The position numbers and the translations under genes were made by a program. The notes under the pieces are model-generated. The model had not been told where the DNA came from, did no database searches, and worked only from the letters and a program-made list of their open reading frames with translations. This document shows positions 8,589-17,565 of a DNA stretch of 64,000 nucleotides, in pieces (position 1 is the first letter of the stretch; the number at the start of each line of letters is the position of its first letter). Source of the stretch: an uncultured Acidobacteriota bacterium (lineage in GTDB: Bacteria; Acidobacteriota; Thermoanaerobaculia; Gp7-AA8); contig CAWGHO010000003.1 of NCBI GenBank assembly GCA_963822445.1, forward strand, positions 640,001-704,000, in the 5' to 3' direction.

Positions 8589-8673
8589 GTTGTCGGGTTG
8601 TCGAGTTGTCAGGTTGTCAGGTGAAGCCGTAGCGAGGGCGCTTGCCAACCTGACAACCCGACAACCTGACAAC
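8589..8673. repeat. Inverted repeat of 8-nt tandem units (GTTGTCRR)x4 ... (CYGACAAC-like)x4
   Basis: Units at 8589-8620 and 8642-8673, in the spacer between divergent genes. Confidence 0.85.
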
Positions 8674-10186: not shown

Positions 10187-11266
10187 ATGAAACAAGCGCT
10201 GATCCTCCTGGTGCTCGTGGCCCTGGCGGTCTGGGTCGCGTCGTGGTTCTGGGCGGGGGACCAGGTCGACGCCGCGGCCGCACGGCCGTGGCCTCATGGA
10301 CTGGGAACGCTCGCCCGGGTTCCCGATCGGTATCCGCCGCAGCAAGAGAATGAAGCTGCGCGGAAGCTCACGAGTCTCACCGGCTCAATCGCCGAAAACG
10401 ACGCCGTCACCACGTACGTGCGAAAGGAGATCGCGAGCGGCGAGCTGACCATCGCCGAGCCGCCGGCGATCCCCGACCTCTCCGCGATCCGCGACCTGCT
10501 GCTGCGCGAGCCGATCGTCTGGAAGCGGCAGATCTCCGTCCAGCACGGCGGTCTTCTGGTGCGAGTCCCGATGTTCCTTTCGCTGACGCGAGCTCTGATC
10601 GCAAACGCGCTGGGCCGCGCGCGCCAGAACGACATCGCCGCGTGGGACGACCTGCACGCGGCGTGGAATCTGACGAAGTCGCTCGACGGACATCCGCATA
10701 TCGTGCTGCGCGTCGTCGCGATGGCGATGACCCGCACGATCAACGCCGTGGCGTGGAAGATGCCCCTTCCTGCGCCGGCGTGGTTCGCCGAGTTGCAGGA
10801 GCGCGAGCTCGTGCGGCCGCTGTTGGAGACGCTGCAGTTCGAGAACTGGCGGCAGTGGAAACATCATGTGTTCGCGCTGAAGCCGTTCGCGGAGCGGATC
10901 GAGCGCGAGCGCGCGCTCACCGCCGAGTTGGGGCGGATGACTGAATGCGAGTTCAAGCGCGTGACCGAGACCGGCGATCGCGGTGATCCTCTCTCCAGGC
11001 TCGACATCGGGTGGCGGCGATCCTTTCGCTACCGCGCCGAACGCGAGGCCACGGCGAACGCACTGCGCGCACGTGCCGGGCAGCCGATCGAAGCAGGCTC
11101 GCGCTGCAGCGACGGCACCTGGAGCTTCGACGGAAAGACGCTCCGGTTCGCGAAGCCGATCGCGTTACCGGAGAAGATCGACACGTCGATGCCGCTGACG
11201 TTGCAGGTGGGAGACGCCGTTCAGCGCGCCGTTCCTCCAACTGCGCGACTCCCGAAGCGGAGATAG
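10187..11266 (+). CDS. Hypothetical protein with N-terminal membrane anchor
   Basis: ATG 10187 followed by a hydrophobic N-terminus. The 3' end overlaps the convergent czcA-like gene. Confidence 0.6.
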   Translation: MKQALILLVLVALAVWVASWFWAGDQVDAAAARPWPHGLGTLARVPDRYPPQQENEAARKLTSLTGSIAENDAVTTYVRKEIASGELTIAEPPAIPDLSAIRDLLLREPIVWKRQISVQHGGLLVRVPMFLSLTRALIANALGRARQNDIAAWDDLHAAWNLTKSLDGHPHIVLRVVAMAMTRTINAVAWKMPLPAPAWFAELQERELVRPLLETLQFENWRQWKHHVFALKPFAERIERERALTAELGRMTECEFKRVTETGDRGDPLSRLDIGWRRSFRYRAEREATANALRARAGQPIEAGSRCSDGTWSFDGKTLRFAKPIALPEKIDTSMPLTLQVGDAVQRAVPPTARLPKRR

Positions 11267-14200
11267 AGCGCCGGCACGACGAACATGTTCAGGGCCGTCG
11301 AGGTCAACAGGCCGCAGAGGATGACGATGGCCATCGGCGTCTGAATCTCGCTGCCCGGCTTGCCGATCGCCAGCGCCAGCGGGATCAGTGCAAGTCCGGC
11401 CGAGAGCGCCGTCATCAGGATCGGCGAGAGCCGCTCCATAGCGCCCCGCTGCACTGCCTCGCGCACGTCCGTCACGCCTTCGTGGGTCATGAGGTGATGC
11501 GTGTGCGAGATGAGCATCAGGCCGTTGCGCGTGGCGATGCCGAAGAGGGTGATGAAGCCGATGATCGACGCGACGGAGAGCGTTCCTCCCGCGACGTAGA
11601 CGCCGGCGACGCCGCCGATCAGCGCGAGCGGCAGGTTGACCATGACCAGCGCCGCATCGCGCAGCGAGTCGAGCGCGATGTAGAGCAGCAGCAGGATTCC
11701 GGCGATGACGACGATGCCGAGGAGCACGAGACGGCGCGACGCTTCCGCTGCGCTCTCGAACTGGCCGCCGTATTCGATGTGATAGCCGGCCGGCAGCTTC
11801 ACCGTCGCCGCGACCTGATCGCGGATGTCCTCGACGACGCTGGAGAGATCGCGGCCGGCGACGTTCGACATGACGACCGCCTTCCGCTCGACGTTCTCGC
11901 GGCTGATCGTGTTCGGTCCCCGATCCTTCCGAACCTCGGCCAGCGCGGAAAGCGGAATCTGTGCGCCGCCTGGCGTGGCGATGCGCGTGGCGCGGATCGT
12001 CTCGAGATCGCCGGTCGCCGCCGCTTCGTAGCGCACGACGAGATCGAATGCGGCGCGTCCTTCGAGGATGCGCGAGACCTCGTGCCCGGCGAAGGCCGTC
12101 TCGATCGCTTCGGCAACGTCGGTGATCTGCAACCCGTACCGGGCGATGGCCGCGCGATCGAACTTCACGGTGAGGAAGGGGATGTCCGGCTGCTGTTCGA
12201 GCGACACGTCGGCCGCGCCTTCGACCGCCGTCACGACGTTCTTCACCTGCTCGCCGAGCTTGCGCAGCGTCGCCAGATCGTCGCCGAAGATCTTCACGGC
12301 GATGTTCGCGCGCGTGCCGGAGAGCATGTGGTCGATGCGATGCGAGATCGGCTGGCCGATGGTGATGTTCGTTCCCGGCACGGCCGACAGCTTGCGCCGC
12401 AGATCGGCCAGAAATTCGTCCTTGCCGCGATCCTTCATCTTCAGGCTGACCTCCATTTCGGAGGCGTTGACGTCCTGCGCGTGCTCGTCGAGCTCCGCAC
12501 GGCCGGTGCGCCGGGCCGTGGCCACGACTTCCGGCTCGCCGAGGAGGATTTCCTCGGTCATTCGTCCGAGGCGGTCTGAGGTTTCGAGCGACGTTCCGGG
12601 AAGGGTGACGAGGTTGATGGTGAGCGTGCCTTCGTTGAAGTCGGGGAGGAACGCGCGGCCCGCGAACGCGAGCGCGACGCCGGCGATCGCGAGCGCGGAG
12701 ACGGAGACAGCCGTGATCAGCTTCCAGCGATGCAGCACGCGGCCGAGCAGCGGCGCGTAGCGCGATTTCAGCCAGTGCACGACACGGCTTTCCTCCGGCA
12801 GCGCGCGCGGCAGGAGAAGCGAGCAGAGCGCCGGCGTGACCGTCAGCGCGACGACGAGCGACGCGGCGAGCGACACGATGTAGGCGAAGCCGAGCGGCCG
12901 AAGCAGGCGGCCTTCGATGCCGGTGAGGAAAAACAGGGGCAGGAAGACGAGCACGATGATGACCGTCGCAAAGACGATCGACCCCCGCACTTCGCGGCTC
13001 GCTTCAAACACGACCTCGAGAACATTTCTGCTTTCTGCCTTCTGCTTTCTGCTTTCGCGCAGCCGGCGCACGACGTTCTCGACGTCGATGATCGCGTCGT
13101 CCACGAGCGCGCCGACGGCGATGGCCATGCCGCCGAGGGTCATCGTGTTGATGGTGATGCCGAACAGCTTCATGGCCAGGATGGCCGTCACCAGCGACAG
13201 CGGGATGGCGAGCACGGTGATCCCGGTCGCGCGCGCGCTCATGAGGAAGATGAAGACGATGGCAATGACGAGGATCGCGCCGTCGCGCAGTGCGGCGACG
13301 ACGTTCCGTACGGCGATCTCGATGAAGTCCGACTGCCGGAAGATGTGGCTGTTGATCTTCATGCCGGCCGGCAACGACTTCTGGATGTCGGCCATCACCA
13401 CGTCGAGCTGCCGCGTGAGCTGGAGCGTGTTCGCGGCCGGTTGCTTCTGGATGCCGAGAATGACCGCGGGCTTGGCGTTGTGCGAACCCTCGCCTCGTTT
13501 CAGAGCAGCGCCGATCTGCACGGTTGCCACATCGCGGACGAGGATCGGCTGGCCGCCGCGCTCGACGATGACGGTCGCGCCGATGTCGTCGGGAGTGGTG
13601 ATGCGGCCCACGCCATGAATCAGATACTCCTGACCGCCTTCGCGGTAGAAGCCTGCCGATGTGTTCTCGTTGCTCTCGCGAAGCGCGCGGATCACGTCAT
13701 CCACGCCGAGCGTGAATGCGGCCAGACGGTCGGGCCGCACGATCACCTGGTACTGCTTCGTCTCGCCGCCGGTGGGGATGACCTGAGACACGCCCGGCAC
13801 CGCGAGCAGGCGGCGACGCACGGTCCAGTCGGCGACCGTTTTCAGCTCCATCGGCGTGTGCTGGTTCGAGGTGAGGGCGATGAACATGATCTCGCCCATG
13901 ATCGAAGAGACCGGCGCGAGCACGGGCGGCGGCATGTCCGGCGGCAGCGTCGATTGCGCGAGCTGGAGTTTCTCGCTCACGACCTGGCGGGCCTGGTAGA
14001 TGTCCGTGCCCCATTCGAACTCGACCCAGATCACGGCGATGCCGACGCCCGTGGACGAGCGCACGCGCCGGACGCCCGATGCCCCATTCAGCGCCGTCTC
14101 GACGGGAAAGGTGATCTGCGTCTCGACTTCCTGCGGCGCCATGCCATGCGCTTCGGCGACGACGGTCACCGTTGGCGCGGTGAGATCGGGGAACACGTCC

Positions 14201-14307
14201 ACCGGCATCTTCACCGCTTCGTACGTACCCCACGCCAGGAGCAGCGCCGCCGTGACGATCACGATGAGACGGTTGTTGAGAGACCACTGGATGATGTTGT
14301 CGATCAT
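11221..14307 (-). CDS. czcA: Heavy-metal efflux RND permease, CusA/CzcA family
   Basis: 1028 aa; DVFPDL, GALVDDAIIDVEN and ERLSPILMTAL motifs. Confidence 0.93.
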   Translation of the reverse strand: MIDNIIQWSLNNRLIVIVTAALLLAWGTYEAVKMPVDVFPDLTAPTVTVVAEAHGMAPQEVETQITFPVETALNGASGVRRVRSSTGVGIAVIWVEFEWGTDIYQARQVVSEKLQLAQSTLPPDMPPPVLAPVSSIMGEIMFIALTSNQHTPMELKTVADWTVRRRLLAVPGVSQVIPTGGETKQYQVIVRPDRLAAFTLGVDDVIRALRESNENTSAGFYREGGQEYLIHGVGRITTPDDIGATVIVERGGQPILVRDVATVQIGAALKRGEGSHNAKPAVILGIQKQPAANTLQLTRQLDVVMADIQKSLPAGMKINSHIFRQSDFIEIAVRNVVAALRDGAILVIAIVFIFLMSARATGITVLAIPLSLVTAILAMKLFGITINTMTLGGMAIAVGALVDDAIIDVENVVRRLRESRKQKAESRNVLEVVFEASREVRGSIVFATVIIVLVFLPLFFLTGIEGRLLRPLGFAYIVSLAASLVVALTVTPALCSLLLPRALPEESRVVHWLKSRYAPLLGRVLHRWKLITAVSVSALAIAGVALAFAGRAFLPDFNEGTLTINLVTLPGTSLETSDRLGRMTEEILLGEPEVVATARRTGRAELDEHAQDVNASEMEVSLKMKDRGKDEFLADLRRKLSAVPGTNITIGQPISHRIDHMLSGTRANIAVKIFGDDLATLRKLGEQVKNVVTAVEGAADVSLEQQPDIPFLTVKFDRAAIARYGLQITDVAEAIETAFAGHEVSRILEGRAAFDLVVRYEAAATGDLETIRATRIATPGGAQIPLSALAEVRKDRGPNTISRENVERKAVVMSNVAGRDLSSVVEDIRDQVAATVKLPAGYHIEYGGQFESAAEASRRLVLLGIVVIAGILLLLYIALDSLRDAALVMVNLPLALIGGVAGVYVAGGTLSVASIIGFITLFGIATRNGLMLISHTHHLMTHEGVTDVREAVQRGAMERLSPILMTALSAGLALIPLALAIGKPGSEIQTPMAIVILCGLLTSTALNMFVVPALYLRFGSRAVGGTAR
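13025..13056. repeat. (YTTCTGC)x4.5 heptamer tract inside czcA
   Basis: Encodes ESRKQKAESR in the loop after VENVVRRLR. Confidence 0.9.
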
Positions 14308-14309
14308 TT

Positions 14310-14341
14310 GAAGGCAGAAAGCAGAAGGCAGAAGGCAGAAG
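14310..14341. repeat. (GCAGAAR)n heptamer arm of the inverted repeat around the four-helix-bundle gene
   Basis: 14310-14340 is the exact reverse complement of 14706-14736 (31 bp). Confidence 0.95.
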
Positions 14342-14358
14342 TGCCTTTTGCCAGACGG

Positions 14359-14703
14359 CTACTGCCTCCTCCATTTCTTGATGAGTGTTACGAAGATCGC
14401 AATCAGCTCTTCGGTCTCGCGCATCAGCGGCTCGATGCGGTCGGTCGGGAAAACGTCAGCCCCAATGAGCAACTCCAGCCAATAGAGCGTCTCCTCGAGT
14501 TCCATCAGGCCGCTGTTGAGTTTCGCGACGTACTCCGCTTTCGAGCGGGCACGCAGCGCCTCGCGAAAATGCGCGCCGGGTGATGTTCCAGATCGGAGCA
14601 ACTGCTTACCGATGACCGCCGCGACCTGGTCGCGCGGCAGTGCCGAGTACAGCCTGATGATCCGCAGCGAATACTCCCGAGTCCGATCCACAAGCGTGCT
14701 CAT
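14359..14703 (-). CDS. Four-helix-bundle protein (23S rRNA intervening-sequence protein family, TIGR02436-like)
   Basis: 114 aa; KQLLRSGTSPGAHFREA..RSKAEY..ELEETLYWLELL signature. Confidence 0.9.
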   Translation of the reverse strand: MSTLVDRTREYSLRIIRLYSALPRDQVAAVIGKQLLRSGTSPGAHFREALRARSKAEYVAKLNSGLMELEETLYWLELLIGADVFPTDRIEPLMRETEELIAIFVTLIKKWRRQ

Positions 14704-14704
14704 A

Positions 14705-14742
14705 TTTCTGCCTTCTGCCTTCTGCTTTCTGCCTTCTGCCTT
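14705..14742. repeat. (YTTCTGC)x5 heptamer arm of the inverted repeat around the four-helix-bundle gene
   Basis: Fills the space between the czcB stop codon and the four-helix-bundle ATG. Confidence 0.95.
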
Positions 14743-16325
14743 TAATGCGCGTGTCCATGCGCAGGCACAGCCCCCGATGCCGCCTGCAGACGGATGTTGT
14801 AGGCGCCGCGCGTCACGACGCGATCGCCAGGTTTGAGTCCTTCGACGATCTGCACGCGATCGCCCTGGCGCGTGCCGAGCTTCAGCGGGCGGCGCTCGAA
14901 CAGCTCGCCTTCCAGCTCGACGTAGGCGACCGGTTGGCCGTCCTCATCGACGACCGCGGACAGGGGAATGACGATGCCGCGGACCGTCGTCGCGGTGAAG
15001 ACCTGCGCGCGCACGAACATGCCCGACTTGAGCTGCCGCGACGCATTCAGCACTTCGAAAATGAGCGCGACCGTGCGGGTCTGCGGGTTCACCACGCCGC
15101 CTGTTCCGATGACGCGGCCGCCGCCGCGCGGGCTCACTTCAAACGGAGTGGGGAAGCCTTCCGGCTGGAACCAGACGCTGTCGGAGCTCTGCACCTGACC
15201 GATCTGTCCTTCCGGGATCTGCAGCTCGAGCCAGAGGCGCGAGAGATCGACGACATGGAACAGCTCGCGCCCTTCCTCGATGAACTCGCCCGGAGCAACG
15301 GTCACGGCCACGATCGTTCCGGCGACCGGCGAGCGCACCTCGAACCGTCCGGCCGATTGGCCGCCGGTCGCGCTCTGCGTGCCGCGGTACTGAGCGAGCC
15401 GGCTCTGCGCGGCCCGCAGGTCCGCGCGCGCCGCTTCCTCCTGCCGCCGCGCATCGAGGACGCGACGCTCCGGCACCGCTTCCTGCGCGAAGAGTCCTTC
15501 GAGCCGCTTTCGCTCCGCTTCTGCCTGCCGGACGGCGATCTCCGCGCGCTGCGCGTCGAGGTTGAGCGATGCCGGATCGACGTCGCTGGGAACGCGCGGC
15601 GCGATCACGCCGAGGACCTGATTGCGTGCGACGTTCATCCCGACCTGTGGATACGTGCCGCGGGCGAGGAACCGGCCGCCCGCGGGCGCTCCCACGCGCG
15701 CCTCGCCATCCGGCCGCGGACGAAGCACGCCATTCGCCGCGACGGAGCCGCGCACTTCGCCTTCCACGACGGGCGCGGTGGCGAACTCCGTCTTCCACTG
15801 TTGTTCTTTGAGGTAGACGATCCCGCCGGATTCCTCTTCCGATTTCGGCGCCGCTGCGATCGCCGCCTGCTCGGACTCGAAGACGGTCACCAGGCCGAGG
15901 TCGTGGCGCGAGACCGCGCCGTCGAAAGCGATCTCGAAGACGAGCCGCCGCTGCCCCGCATGCTGCGGTTTCGCGATCGGCCGGAAGATGCCGGGAACGC
16001 TCGGCGCGTTCGCGCTGAATCGTTCCTCGGCCGCGCCGCCTTCGCTGAGGATCGCCGTCACCGTTCCCGTTGCGAGCGGCTTGAAGTCGGACAGGCGCGT
16101 GACGTGCGCGGCGAACGGCGACTCCGCACCCTTCGCCAAGGCGTCAAACTCCACGAACAGCTCCGTTTTGTCCGTGAAGTGCGTGTAGGTGAGGGCCTCG
16201 CGTTCGGGGGCTTCGGCGCGTTCTTCGTGGCGGCACGCCGCGGAAAGCAGAAGGCAACACGAAAGCAGAAGGCAGAAGGCAGAAAGCAGAAGTGCTCCGC
16301 CGGCTGCACGCTTAGTTCGTTTCAT
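14742..16325 (-). CDS. czcB: RND efflux periplasmic adaptor (CzcB-like membrane fusion protein), probable lipoprotein
   Basis: VRSPVAGTI, LKSGMFV and VEGLKPGDRVV motifs; His-rich tail AHGHAH; LSAAC lipobox-like motif. Start ATG 16325 inferred. Confidence 0.88.
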   Translation of the reverse strand: MKRTKRAAGGALLLSAFCLLLSCCLLLSAACRHEERAEAPEREALTYTHFTDKTELFVEFDALAKGAESPFAAHVTRLSDFKPLATGTVTAILSEGGAAEERFSANAPSVPGIFRPIAKPQHAGQRRLVFEIAFDGAVSRHDLGLVTVFESEQAAIAAAPKSEEESGGIVYLKEQQWKTEFATAPVVEGEVRGSVAANGVLRPRPDGEARVGAPAGGRFLARGTYPQVGMNVARNQVLGVIAPRVPSDVDPASLNLDAQRAEIAVRQAEAERKRLEGLFAQEAVPERRVLDARRQEEAARADLRAAQSRLAQYRGTQSATGGQSAGRFEVRSPVAGTIVAVTVAPGEFIEEGRELFHVVDLSRLWLELQIPEGQIGQVQSSDSVWFQPEGFPTPFEVSPRGGGRVIGTGGVVNPQTRTVALIFEVLNASRQLKSGMFVRAQVFTATTVRGIVIPLSAVVDEDGQPVAYVELEGELFERRPLKLGTRQGDRVQIVEGLKPGDRVVTRGAYNIRLQAASGAVPAHGHAH

Positions 16326-16370
16326 GATCCGGTCCCCCATTTCTGCTTTCTGCCTTCTGCATTCTGATTT
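16243..16370. repeat. Heptamer inverted repeat spanning the czcC/czcB junction
   Basis: GCAGAAR tract at 16243-16292 and YTTCTGC tract at 16340-16370. 16272-16291 is the exact reverse complement of 16341-16360. Confidence 0.9.
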
Positions 16371-17565
16371 CCGGCGCGGCCAACGCACGGAATAGCTCGA
16401 TTTCGGCAGCGCGCGCGCGGCCTTCGAGATCGGCGGCTTCAAGCTCCGCATCCAGCGCCGTCCGGTGGGCGTCGAGCAGTTCGAGGATGCCGACCTCGCC
16501 CGCGCGATAGGCCGCTTCGGCAGTGCCAGTCAGACGTTCAGAGGTGGGCAGGGCCTGCTCGCGGAAGAGGCGCGCGGCATGGCGCAACTCGCGCGCTTCC
16601 GCCGCGAGGGCGCCGGCTTCGGCGCGTGCACGCGTGACGAGGAGCGTGCGTTGCGCGGTCAGGATCGCCAGCTCCGCGTTCGCGCGCAGCAGCTCGTCCT
16701 GATTGCGATTGAAGATCGGCAGACTGAGGCTCGCGCCGAGAATCGCGCCGCTTGCCGCATCGGTGTTCTTCATGCCGGCCGTCAGATCGAAGAGCGGCAC
16801 GCGCCAGCGCTGGGCGGCCTGCTGGTCGAGCGTCGCCGCTTCGATCCGTTTGGCGATGGCCGCGACGTCGGGGCGCTGTTCGATGCGCGCGGTCAGCTCC
16901 GCGTCCGTCGGAATCTCCGGTGCGTCCGGTCGCTGCAACGTCACACCTTCCAGCCGTTCGATGCCGAGAAGTCCGGCGAGTCTTCGTTGGGCCGCGACGA
17001 GCGCGCCGCGCTCCGCCGCAAGGCGCGCTTCCGCACCGATGCGCTCGCGTTCGAGACGGCGGCGGTCGTATCCCGAGACCTCGCCGCCGGCTTGCAGACG
17101 CGCCACAGTTTCCGCCGCTGCGCCGATCTTGGTCGACCATTCCGTCAGCGCGCGCACCAGTTCCTGTTGATTCGCCGCGCGGCTGAATTCCGATCGGACG
17201 ACGTGTGCCAGGTCGAGTTGTTGCCCGGCGACCTCCTGCTGCACTGCCTCGACGCGCAGCTCGGCTGCGCGTCGCCGCAACGCCCGGCGGCCGGAGACGT
17301 CGAACGACTGCGAGAGCGTCAGAAACTGTTCGGTCTCGCCGGCGCTTTCGCGCGTGTAGTCGAGCGTCGGATTCGGCCAGCGGCGTTCGCGCCCCACGTC
17401 ACTGCGCGCGAGATCGAGCTGCGCCGTGCTGAGTGCAACGACGCTCTGCGCGCCGCTGGCAATGCGCACGGCATCGTCTTCGGTGAGTACGTTCGGGATC
17501 GTCTGCGCGCGTGCTGCCGTCGCGGAAACCAGCAGGCCGATGATGAGGAATCGTTGAAAACGCAA
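16312..17565 (-). CDS. czcC: TolC-family outer-membrane factor (CzcC-like)
   Basis: WPNP, SLPIFNRNQ and AYRAGEVGILELLDA motifs; TTG start with AGGAG upstream. Confidence 0.88.
   Translation of the reverse strand: MRFQRFLIIGLLVSATAARAQTIPNVLTEDDAVRIASGAQSVVALSTAQLDLARSDVGRERRWPNPTLDYTRESAGETEQFLTLSQSFDVSGRRALRRRAAELRVEAVQQEVAGQQLDLAHVVRSEFSRAANQQELVRALTEWSTKIGAAAETVARLQAGGEVSGYDRRRLERERIGAEARLAAERGALVAAQRRLAGLLGIERLEGVTLQRPDAPEIPTDAELTARIEQRPDVAAIAKRIEAATLDQQAAQRWRVPLFDLTAGMKNTDAASGAILGASLSLPIFNRNQDELLRANAELAILTAQRTLLVTRARAEAGALAAEARELRHAARLFREQALPTSERLTGTAEAAYRAGEVGILELLDAHRTALDAELEAADLEGRARAAEIELFRALAAPEIRMQKAESRNGGPDHETN

Follow-up and report, generated by a model that had tools for sequence, protein, structure and literature searches.

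Intervening sequences that lie in 23S rRNA and carry an open reading frame (ORF) have been described in Coxiella burnetii, Leptospira and other bacteria (PMC4990558). In Coxiella the element combines heptamer repeats and an S23p ORF with a 28-bp stem, and RNase III cleaves it. S23p proteins are four-helix-bundle (4HB) proteins, and a Xanthomonas homologue is cited in the same paper as a homopentameric toroid. Their family, PF05635, is described as the Avd-like family that most often adjoins the reverse transcriptases of diversity-generating retroelements (DGRs), and Avd, the DGR accessory protein, is placed in the same structural superfamily (PMC10053308). Inverted pairs of tandem heptamers or octamers have been reported from Xanthomonas (GGGAATC; PMC4692102) and from Geobacter metallireducens (GTTGCTYN in four copies, MTYCTGA in five; PMC2700814). 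The function of the S23p proteins encoded by intervening sequences has been unexplained since the 1990s, and so has the origin of heptamer repeat hairpins. Two other systems bear on the present case. In REPIN-RAYT systems a single-copy gene is flanked by its own inverted repeats and is accompanied by tens to hundreds of gene-less inverted doublets. TRAP is a ring-shaped homo-oligomer of 11 subunits that reads phased GAG/UAG cores separated by spacers. Here we analyse a 64,000-nucleotide stretch of DNA (the window) from an uncultured Acidobacteriota bacterium of the Thermoanaerobaculia (assembly GCA_963822445.1, contig CAWGHO010000003.1, positions 640,001 to 704,000), in which a 114-aa 4HB gene, enclosed by a heptamer-built inverted repeat, lies between czcB and czcA. 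We propose that this gene for a basic 4HB protein and its two complementary arms may together form a portable cassette that recognises itself, in analogy to a RAYT gene and its REPINs. From the sequence evidence, we give this reading a probability of roughly one in two.

An initial annotation of the window had described a perfect 31-bp inverted repeat, built of heptamers, around the 114-aa ORF. We confirmed this repeat: positions 14310-14340 and 14706-14736 are 100% complementary and the arms lie 365 nt apart. When mismatches are allowed the repeat grows to 34 nt at 91%, and it then takes in the stop codon of czcB (TAA, 14742-14744, minus strand), which pairs into the base of the extended stem. 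Tandem Repeats Finder (TRF) reports both arms as period-7 arrays, GAAGGCA in 4.6 copies at 14310-14341 and TTCTGCC in 5.3 copies at 14706-14742. On the minus strand, which is the mRNA strand of the cassette and of both czc genes, czcB ends in CAT TAA and is followed by the purine-rich 5′ arm, A(GGCAGAA)n AT (14706-14742, 5.3 units, with the perfect repeat at 14706-14736), and then by the ATG of the 4HB gene (14359-14703), which ends in TAG. A spacer of 18 nt (14341-14358) leads to the pyrimidine-rich 3′ arm, (TTCTGCC)n TTC (14310-14340), and only the two nucleotides AA separate this arm from the ATG of czcA (14305-14307). The 5′ arm provides the 4HB gene with AAGG 8-11 nt upstream of its start. 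The last 20 nt upstream of the czcA ATG are pyrimidine-rich and contain no GGAG-like run, whereas orthologous junctions that are empty of the cassette have GGGAG; the earlier claim that czcA lacks a Shine-Dalgarno sequence was borne out. The 3′ arm takes the place of the spacer that would hold it.

Chance can be excluded as the source of the inverted repeat: with the same scoring, 20 shuffles of the flanks at each of the 127 loci with complete flanks gave no repeat above 14, as against 31 at the czc cassette. The predicted minimum-free-energy fold of the RNA includes the 31-bp stem (-206.6 kcal/mol, z = -6.4), and none of 100 shuffles was equally stable. Both this predicted fold and the geometry of the repeat agree with the earlier suggestion that the stem puts the czcB stop beside the czcA start. 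A search of sequencing runs for the locus listed no RNA run, and no run matched more than 0.09 of the sampled words. A search of 13800-16600 with Rfam found no rRNA; a sub-threshold match of a neighbouring hairpin to a microRNA family was treated as chance.

The 114-aa protein scores 53.7 bits against PF05635 (cut-off 33.8) and 74.3 bits against TIGR02436 (cut-off 24). Its closest solved relative is PDB 2rld_A (E = 2.4e-22, residues 4-111), an entry with five chains. The protein is basic, with an isoelectric point (pI) of 9.45, and all six 4HB proteins of the 6.0-Mb genome that holds the window (G000, 94.7% complete; other genomes bear labels of the type G001-G035) have a pI of 8.1-9.8. The closest copies of the protein are found in G008 (84 of 114 residues identical) and G024 (69 of 114). 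Against these copies dN/dS is 0.13 and 0.16, and dS is 1.4 and 2.0, so that synonymous sites are saturated. These values show that the 4HB gene is functional and under purifying selection. Despite the saturation, the cassette arms of all three genomes still keep the GAARGCA unit.

The comparison with an rRNA intervening sequence, which had been made in the initial annotation, is apt. As in the Coxiella element (PMC4990558), a long terminal stem (of 31 bp at czc and of 28 bp in Coxiella) has an S23p/PF05635 ORF in its loop, tandem heptamers lie upstream of the ORF (in a copy number that varies between strains there), and there is no transposase. One Coxiella strain has a 176-bp deletion in the ORF, which resembles a deletion of about 170 nt that we describe below for a relative. 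Unlike the 23S rRNA elements, the cassette lies in a protein-coding operon rather than in helix 25 or 45 of 23S rRNA, and it replaces a ribosome-binding spacer. Purifying selection acts on the gene here; the Coxiella ORF, by contrast, is described in the same source as decaying and untranslated. The cassette also occurs together with hundreds of hairpins that lack a gene. RNase III cleavage has been shown for the Coxiella element; for the czc mRNA stem it can reasonably be inferred, because a 31-bp duplex is a classic substrate, G000 has an RNase III gene and the rRNA counterparts are cut. In sum, the czc cassette would work like an rRNA intervening sequence but does not have the defining location in 23S rRNA.

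Orthologous czcB-czcA junctions were recovered in nine relatives, so that filled, empty and decaying states of one site could be compared directly. Six relatives (G013, G033, G028, G001, G032 and G023) have an empty junction, the state that the initial annotation had proposed to look for. In these, TAA or TGA is followed by an 11-nt spacer and ATG, and the spacer is cgggagccacg or a near variant and contains the Shine-Dalgarno motif GGGAG. The junction of G030 reads TAG, agatctcaa, ATG. The same cassette fills the czcB-czcA junction of G035, which belongs to another genus of the same family as G000. There the 3′ arm is identical at 31 of 31 positions, the 5′ arm is one unit shorter and the spacer between ORF stop and 3′ arm is identical at 15 of 18 positions, but the 4HB gene has lost about 170 nt through an internal deletion. 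These comparisons show that the cassette entered in one piece between the stop of czcB and the start of czcA, where it took the place of the 11-nt spacer with its Shine-Dalgarno motif. They also show that the cassette decays, with the arms outlasting the gene. The earlier view of a selfish cassette inserted at an operon junction, without a transposase, is supported. We found no target-site duplication in the comparison of filled and empty sites at the czc junction, at C2:1776114 or at C1:990185; instead, target bases were replaced. A separate observation concerns G034 (L010), in which an unrelated 131-nt nested palindrome that is not heptamer-built occupies the position of the cassette.

Cassettes of this clade occur in four contexts: czcBA (G000 and G035), a cusBA-like operon (G035), between a response regulator and DUF3108-IspH (G008), and between an Ig-domain protein and an aldolase (G024). 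The cusBA-like copy (L175, G035:C114) has a frameshifted gene and lies in a paralogous operon, between a CusB-like adaptor with a heavy-metal-binding domain and a resistance-nodulation-division (RND) pump. Other cassettes have been inherited at fixed junctions, one between an ABC ATPase and its permease in nine genomes and one at the L006 site in six, and at such junctions both arms changed their unit together over time. Some sites that are filled in relatives are empty in G000, for example a TGATG stop/start overlap at C2:1776114. We also noted two junctions that hold 4HB cassettes in relatives and other small genes in G000 (C3:1119340-1120220 and C3:848230-849000). One of them has a nucleotidyltransferase-like ORF with a solo octamer array and the other a pair resembling a Doc/Fic-type toxin-antitoxin, the families having been judged by eye from the translations.

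The czc cassette is one member of a large population. G000 has six TIGR02436 genes and all six have inverted tandem-repeat arms; the other five are enclosed by 31-37-nt inverted repeats of tandem 7- or 8-mers, each of another unit. A TRF census of G000 gave 768 arrays of period 7 or 8 with at least three copies, which merged to 747, and these included 264 inverted pairs. Loops of 0-83 nt without a gene account for 250 of the pairs, loops of 364-385 nt that are 4HB genes account for five, and the other nine are neighbouring hairpins that cross-pair. The 8-mer arms of the sixth gene were found separately. The 264 pairs fall into 49 unit classes, and the three largest, AATGCAG (30), AACCCCGT (27) and AACGACT (26), also flank resident 4HB genes. 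The arms have a median of 4.4 units and a modal length of 31 nt (7-mers) or 34-35 nt (8-mers); a median of 4.4 units corresponds to five phased cores per arm. Within one hairpin family the arms are mosaics of two unit variants in many orders. The loops of gene-less hairpins in G000 share no more than a short inner foot and are otherwise unrelated. When loops of 141 gene-less hairpins were compared with cassette interiors (score at least 16), a test of low power, 23 matches against 15 in shuffled sequences were obtained at 24 bits or more, and four against two at 28 bits or more. One octamer family of 11 pairs (GTTGCTGG type, class AACCCAGC) has a consensus that equals GTTGCTYN, which the supplementary legends of PMC2700814 give for 'class 1 regulator sites' of G. 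metallireducens.

Outside G000, TIGR02436 genes are present in 54 of 61 Thermoanaerobaculia genomes. Our sample of relatives comprised 136 loci with 139 gene hits, the loci of unpublished genomes being left out, and 127 genes had complete flanks. A flanking inverted repeat scoring at least 16 was found at 110 of the 127 (shuffled maximum 14), the related genomes not being independent samples. The period was 7 in 79 of these cassettes, 8 in 21, 9-10 in eight and 6 in two. Their arms again had a median of 4.4 units, and 145 of 212 lay within 3.5-5.4 units. In a sample from many phyla, which was drawn with three closer proteins and covers the L004-L006 protein subtype only, 55 of 76 genes had arms at this score, all of period 7. 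The initial annotation had proposed that the flanks of 4HB genes be scanned genome-wide; inverted tandem 7- or 8-mers were present at all six in G000, and such arms also at most genes in relatives and in other phyla. A reading of the cassette as a czc-specific regulator was not borne out, the same arms being found on 6/6, 110/127 and 55/76 genes. The arm-enclosed package is the normal state of the 4HB gene family in G000, its relatives and other phyla. This alters what needs to be explained, which is a population with about 250 gene-less hairpins that the initial annotation had not recognised.

Cassettes are co-oriented with the upstream gene in 71 of the 92 cases with a callable upstream strand, and the 5′ arm starts a median of 1 nt past the stop codon of that gene. 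Among the 250 gene-less hairpins of G000, 159 lie between co-directional genes, 42 between divergent genes and 39 between convergent genes. They too adjoin stop codons, 141 of 240 gene ends falling within -15 to +5 nt of a hairpin arm. The pairs of Xanthomonas and Geobacter (PMC4692102, PMC2700814) are similar in having four to five tandem 7-8-mers per arm on opposite strands, at variable distance, in 'convergent' orientation and mostly between co-directional genes. The cited parts of those papers treat the pairs as G-quadruplex motifs or regulator binding sites and draw no link to a 4HB gene.

An insertion hot spot was found in a divergent promoter gap, GAGTTTA^TATACTT (G000 C1:990185-990305, L190; orthologous sites L204-L211). 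At this point G000 has an AGTCGTT hairpin, G018 and G005 have hairpins of GAACGCA units and G020 has a solo array of AATTCTC; the insert of G019 is not built of heptamers, and four genomes have nothing there. These results show that different families hit the same AT-rich points independently. We also considered whether gene-less hairpins arose by deletion from cassettes that relatives have at the same position, and rejected this at C3:429818 and C2:753182 because the units differ; repeated independent insertion, and not simple decay, is indicated there. A perfect AGTCGTT hairpin of G000 (C1:134309-134392, L189) coincides with a break in synteny: in relatives the sequences on its two sides lie apart, on different contigs or in different places, and no empty site was found for it.

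Genes and arms are associated. Clades of the 4HB protein tree agree with the sequence of the unit, with its period (7, 8 or 9-10) and with the site. Among units of the protein subtype of the czc cassette, 37 of 55 from the cross-phylum sample and 26 of 32 from relatives have a GAA core, whereas the maxima in 500 letter shuffles were 28 and 21; the remaining four unit positions are variable. In the other protein subtype only 3 of 47 units contain GAA, and no triplet is prominent. Three tandem copies of AGTCGTT give 106 matches in G000, 0-1 in 34 congeners and 23 in one genome of another family, and G000 is the only sampled genome with an AGTCGTT-armed 4HB gene. Three copies of GAAGGCA give 568, 559, 278 and 250 matches in G024, G027, G011 and G008, each of which has an intact GAAGGCA-armed gene, as against 29 in G000 and zero in 40 of 61 genomes. 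These patterns indicate that the arm families are lineage-specific expansions that co-occur with the matching gene.

The same data bear on a different explanation, in which the arms are the terminal inverted repeats of a non-autonomous element resembling a miniature inverted-repeat transposable element, moved in trans by an ordinary transposase (for example of the Y1/RAYT type), and the 4HB gene is an unrelated passenger. G000 has four Y1_Tnp matches away from the cassette, there are about 250 copies without the gene to 6 with it, and hairpin families can persist without an intact matching gene and arms can reassort with genes, as described below. However, the same cargo family lies between the arms in 110/127 and 55/76 cases, a far more regular association than a passenger would be expected to show, and the unit core tracks the protein subtype. 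The missing target-site duplications and the mutually unrelated interiors of the gene-less copies also speak against it. We consider this explanation unlikely, and prefer a cassette that recognises its own arms.

The arms have a marked handedness. The 5′ arm has more G than C in 238 of the 250 hairpins of G000 (3 opposite, 9 equal), in 101 of the 110 cassettes of relatives (4 opposite, 5 equal) and in 48 of the 55 cross-phylum cassettes (6 opposite, 1 equal). The handedness of a palindrome is identical on both strands, so this bias is independent of gene orientation. Because the 5′ arm is G-rich, the enclosed gene sees a purine-rich, Shine-Dalgarno-like arm upstream and the next host gene, here czcA, sees a pyrimidine-rich one. 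The G-rich 5′ arms match the 'convergent' pairs of Xanthomonas, in which the G-rich strands point inward (PMC4692102).

It is conceivable that the cassette is instead mainly a device that acts at the RNA level. RNase III would process the transcript or start its decay at the stem and thereby uncouple the expression of czcA from that of czcCB, the 4HB protein would be an RNA chaperone or autoregulator, and the hairpins would be regulatory or terminator-like and not copied. A perfect 31-bp stem that joins a stop and a start codon fits this idea, as do the co-orientation of cassettes with the upstream gene, the placement of the arm just past its stop, the presence of RNase III and the precedent of the rRNA intervening sequences (PMC4990558). 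Several results argue against it. Stem mismatches in the cassettes of relatives show no excess of G-U over A-C (63 GT vs 69 AC), and selection on stem pairing at the RNA level is therefore not visible. The earlier idea that the cassette hides itself by RNA pairing gains no support from this indirect test. The handedness is strand-symmetric, and hairpins also lie between divergent (42/250) and convergent (39/250) genes. Moreover, eight of ten orthologous czc operons work without the cassette, and arm families have been copied within the genome with shared unit variants. We regard an RNA-level device as doubtful in comparison with the portable cassette.

Arrays of the same type have also changed coding DNA of the czc operon. 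The cassette is flanked by czcA (11221-14307, minus strand), whose product matches the CusA/CzcA RND pump model TIGR00914 over its full length (865 bits), and by czcB (14742-16325, minus strand), which encodes an RND periplasmic adaptor (TIGR01730, 137 bits). An outer-membrane factor gene, czcC, lies upstream of czcB. Within czcA, a solo array of the GAARGCA unit family (13025-13056, minus strand) replaces 36 nt of a variable segment of CzcA in frame, so that RENRNLPPEQQRG has become RESRKQKAESRN, and alters the length by no more than one codon. G030 has a more degenerate version of this array and seven other relatives keep the ancestral sequence. At the czcC-czcB junction there is a gene-less hairpin of the same unit family (16243-16371, minus strand) of which both arms are translated. 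Its 5′ arm encodes the tail of CzcC (RMQKAESRN), its loop holds the czcC stop (16312-16314) and a new czcB ATG (16323-16325), which we took as the czcB start, and translation of its C-rich 3′ arm gives CzcB the hydrophobic core of its signal peptide (LLLSAFCLLLSCCLLLSAAC). G013, G033, G001 and G035 have a plain ATGA overlap here, with GGAGG and a different signal peptide, and G030 has the hairpin. These alignments indicate that arrays can overwrite coding DNA, in this operon the CzcA loop, the CzcC tail and the CzcB signal peptide.

The overwriting of 36 nt with hardly any change in length, and the standing of PF05635 as the Avd-like family commonest beside DGR reverse transcriptases (PMC10053308), could suggest a DGR remnant or satellite in which the 4HB protein is an Avd-type accessory to a reverse transcriptase that writes the arrays, but we rejected this as very improbable because, unlike Avd systems, G000 (94.7% complete) has no PF00078 reverse transcriptase, in a search whose controls matched in 3 of 14 genomes, and the locus has no template/variable repeat pair. 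Two further gene-less hairpins were observed in the window, one at 719-791 with AATTGAA/TTTTCAG arms and a loop of about 19 nt, and one at 8589-8673 with octamer arms (GTTGTCAG/CAACCTGA) and a loop of about 23 nt.

Based on these comparisons, we propose a model for the self-recognising cassette. The 4HB protein would act as a pentamer that binds the five phased cores of an arm, the core being GAA for this subtype. A count of five for both the subunits and the phased cores of an arm suggests that the protein forms a ring and reads the repeats, and this match is the central step of the model. Gene and arms would thereby constitute a self-recognising unit, the protein itself being no enzyme. The second part of the model concerns expression. 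The 31-bp stem would form on the czcCBA transcript and RNase III would cut it, as in the 23S rRNA intervening sequences. The cut would free the mRNA of the 4HB gene, and czcA, retaining a short pyrimidine-rich leader, would be translated without a Shine-Dalgarno sequence. Finally, new copies may arise at AT-rich junctions, such as stop codons and promoter gaps, by a host-dependent DNA process that makes no target duplication. Three observations constrain how arm pairs arise: the loops are unrelated to cassette interiors, the arms are mosaics of two unit variants and there is no target duplication.

The proposed unit resembles REPIN-RAYT systems in several ways. Its own inverted repeats flank the gene, gene-less doublets are dispersed, loci are fixed in relatives and the families are lineage-specific, with their largest expansions in genomes that have an intact matching gene. 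Unlike a RAYT, the 4HB protein has no nuclease or transposase fold and is not a Y1 (HUH) transposase. Tandem 7-10-mers take the place of a single imperfect palindrome, and the doublet loops are mutually unrelated. The predicted binding of phased GAA cores by a ring is reminiscent of TRAP, which reads phased short cores in a similar manner, but the fold of TRAP is unrelated and it has 11 subunits. In the literature that we searched, we found no description of 4HB/S23p genes in heptamer-armed cassettes outside rRNA.

A number of points weigh against this model. The match of five to five is imperfect: 67 of the 212 arms in relatives lie outside 3.5-5.4 copies and, in some taxa, arms have up to 17 units. 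By the loop comparison, the gene-less hairpins are not demonstrably deletion derivatives of cassettes, and the stems show the lack of a G-U excess noted above. Some arm families occur where the gene does not. G030 has 150 matches to three copies of GAAGGCA yet only a 41-aa gene fragment, G035 has 173 such matches and degraded gene copies, and G000 itself has 20 AAAGGCTC hairpin pairs for which there is no matching gene. GAAGGCA arms also flank genes that are only 37-39% identical to the 114-aa gene, which implies that arms and genes can reassort. Last, the co-variation of gene and arms could be plain co-inheritance, and the kinship of the sampled relatives lends it more apparent support than independent genomes would.

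More tentatively, the model may extend to the family as a whole. In this broader form, which we hold with distinctly less confidence than the cassette model itself, 4HB proteins would read phased 7-10-nt repeats in a sequence-specific way, a pentameric ring would sit on the five cores of an arm, and each clade would maintain its own arm pairs and spread them to AT-rich junctions while encoding no nuclease or polymerase.

The genome studied here ties 4HB genes to heptamer hairpins with numbers. The elements also reshape operons: at czc a ribosome-binding site has been lost, a signal peptide replaced and a protein loop rewritten. If the broader reading is true, one mechanism would cover the 23S rRNA intervening sequences, the excess of heptamer repeats that has long been noted in bacterial intergenic DNA and the 'regulator sites' of Geobacter and Xanthomonas. 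It would also mean that a symbiosis of repeat and gene like that of REPIN-RAYT can be built on a protein that is not an enzyme.

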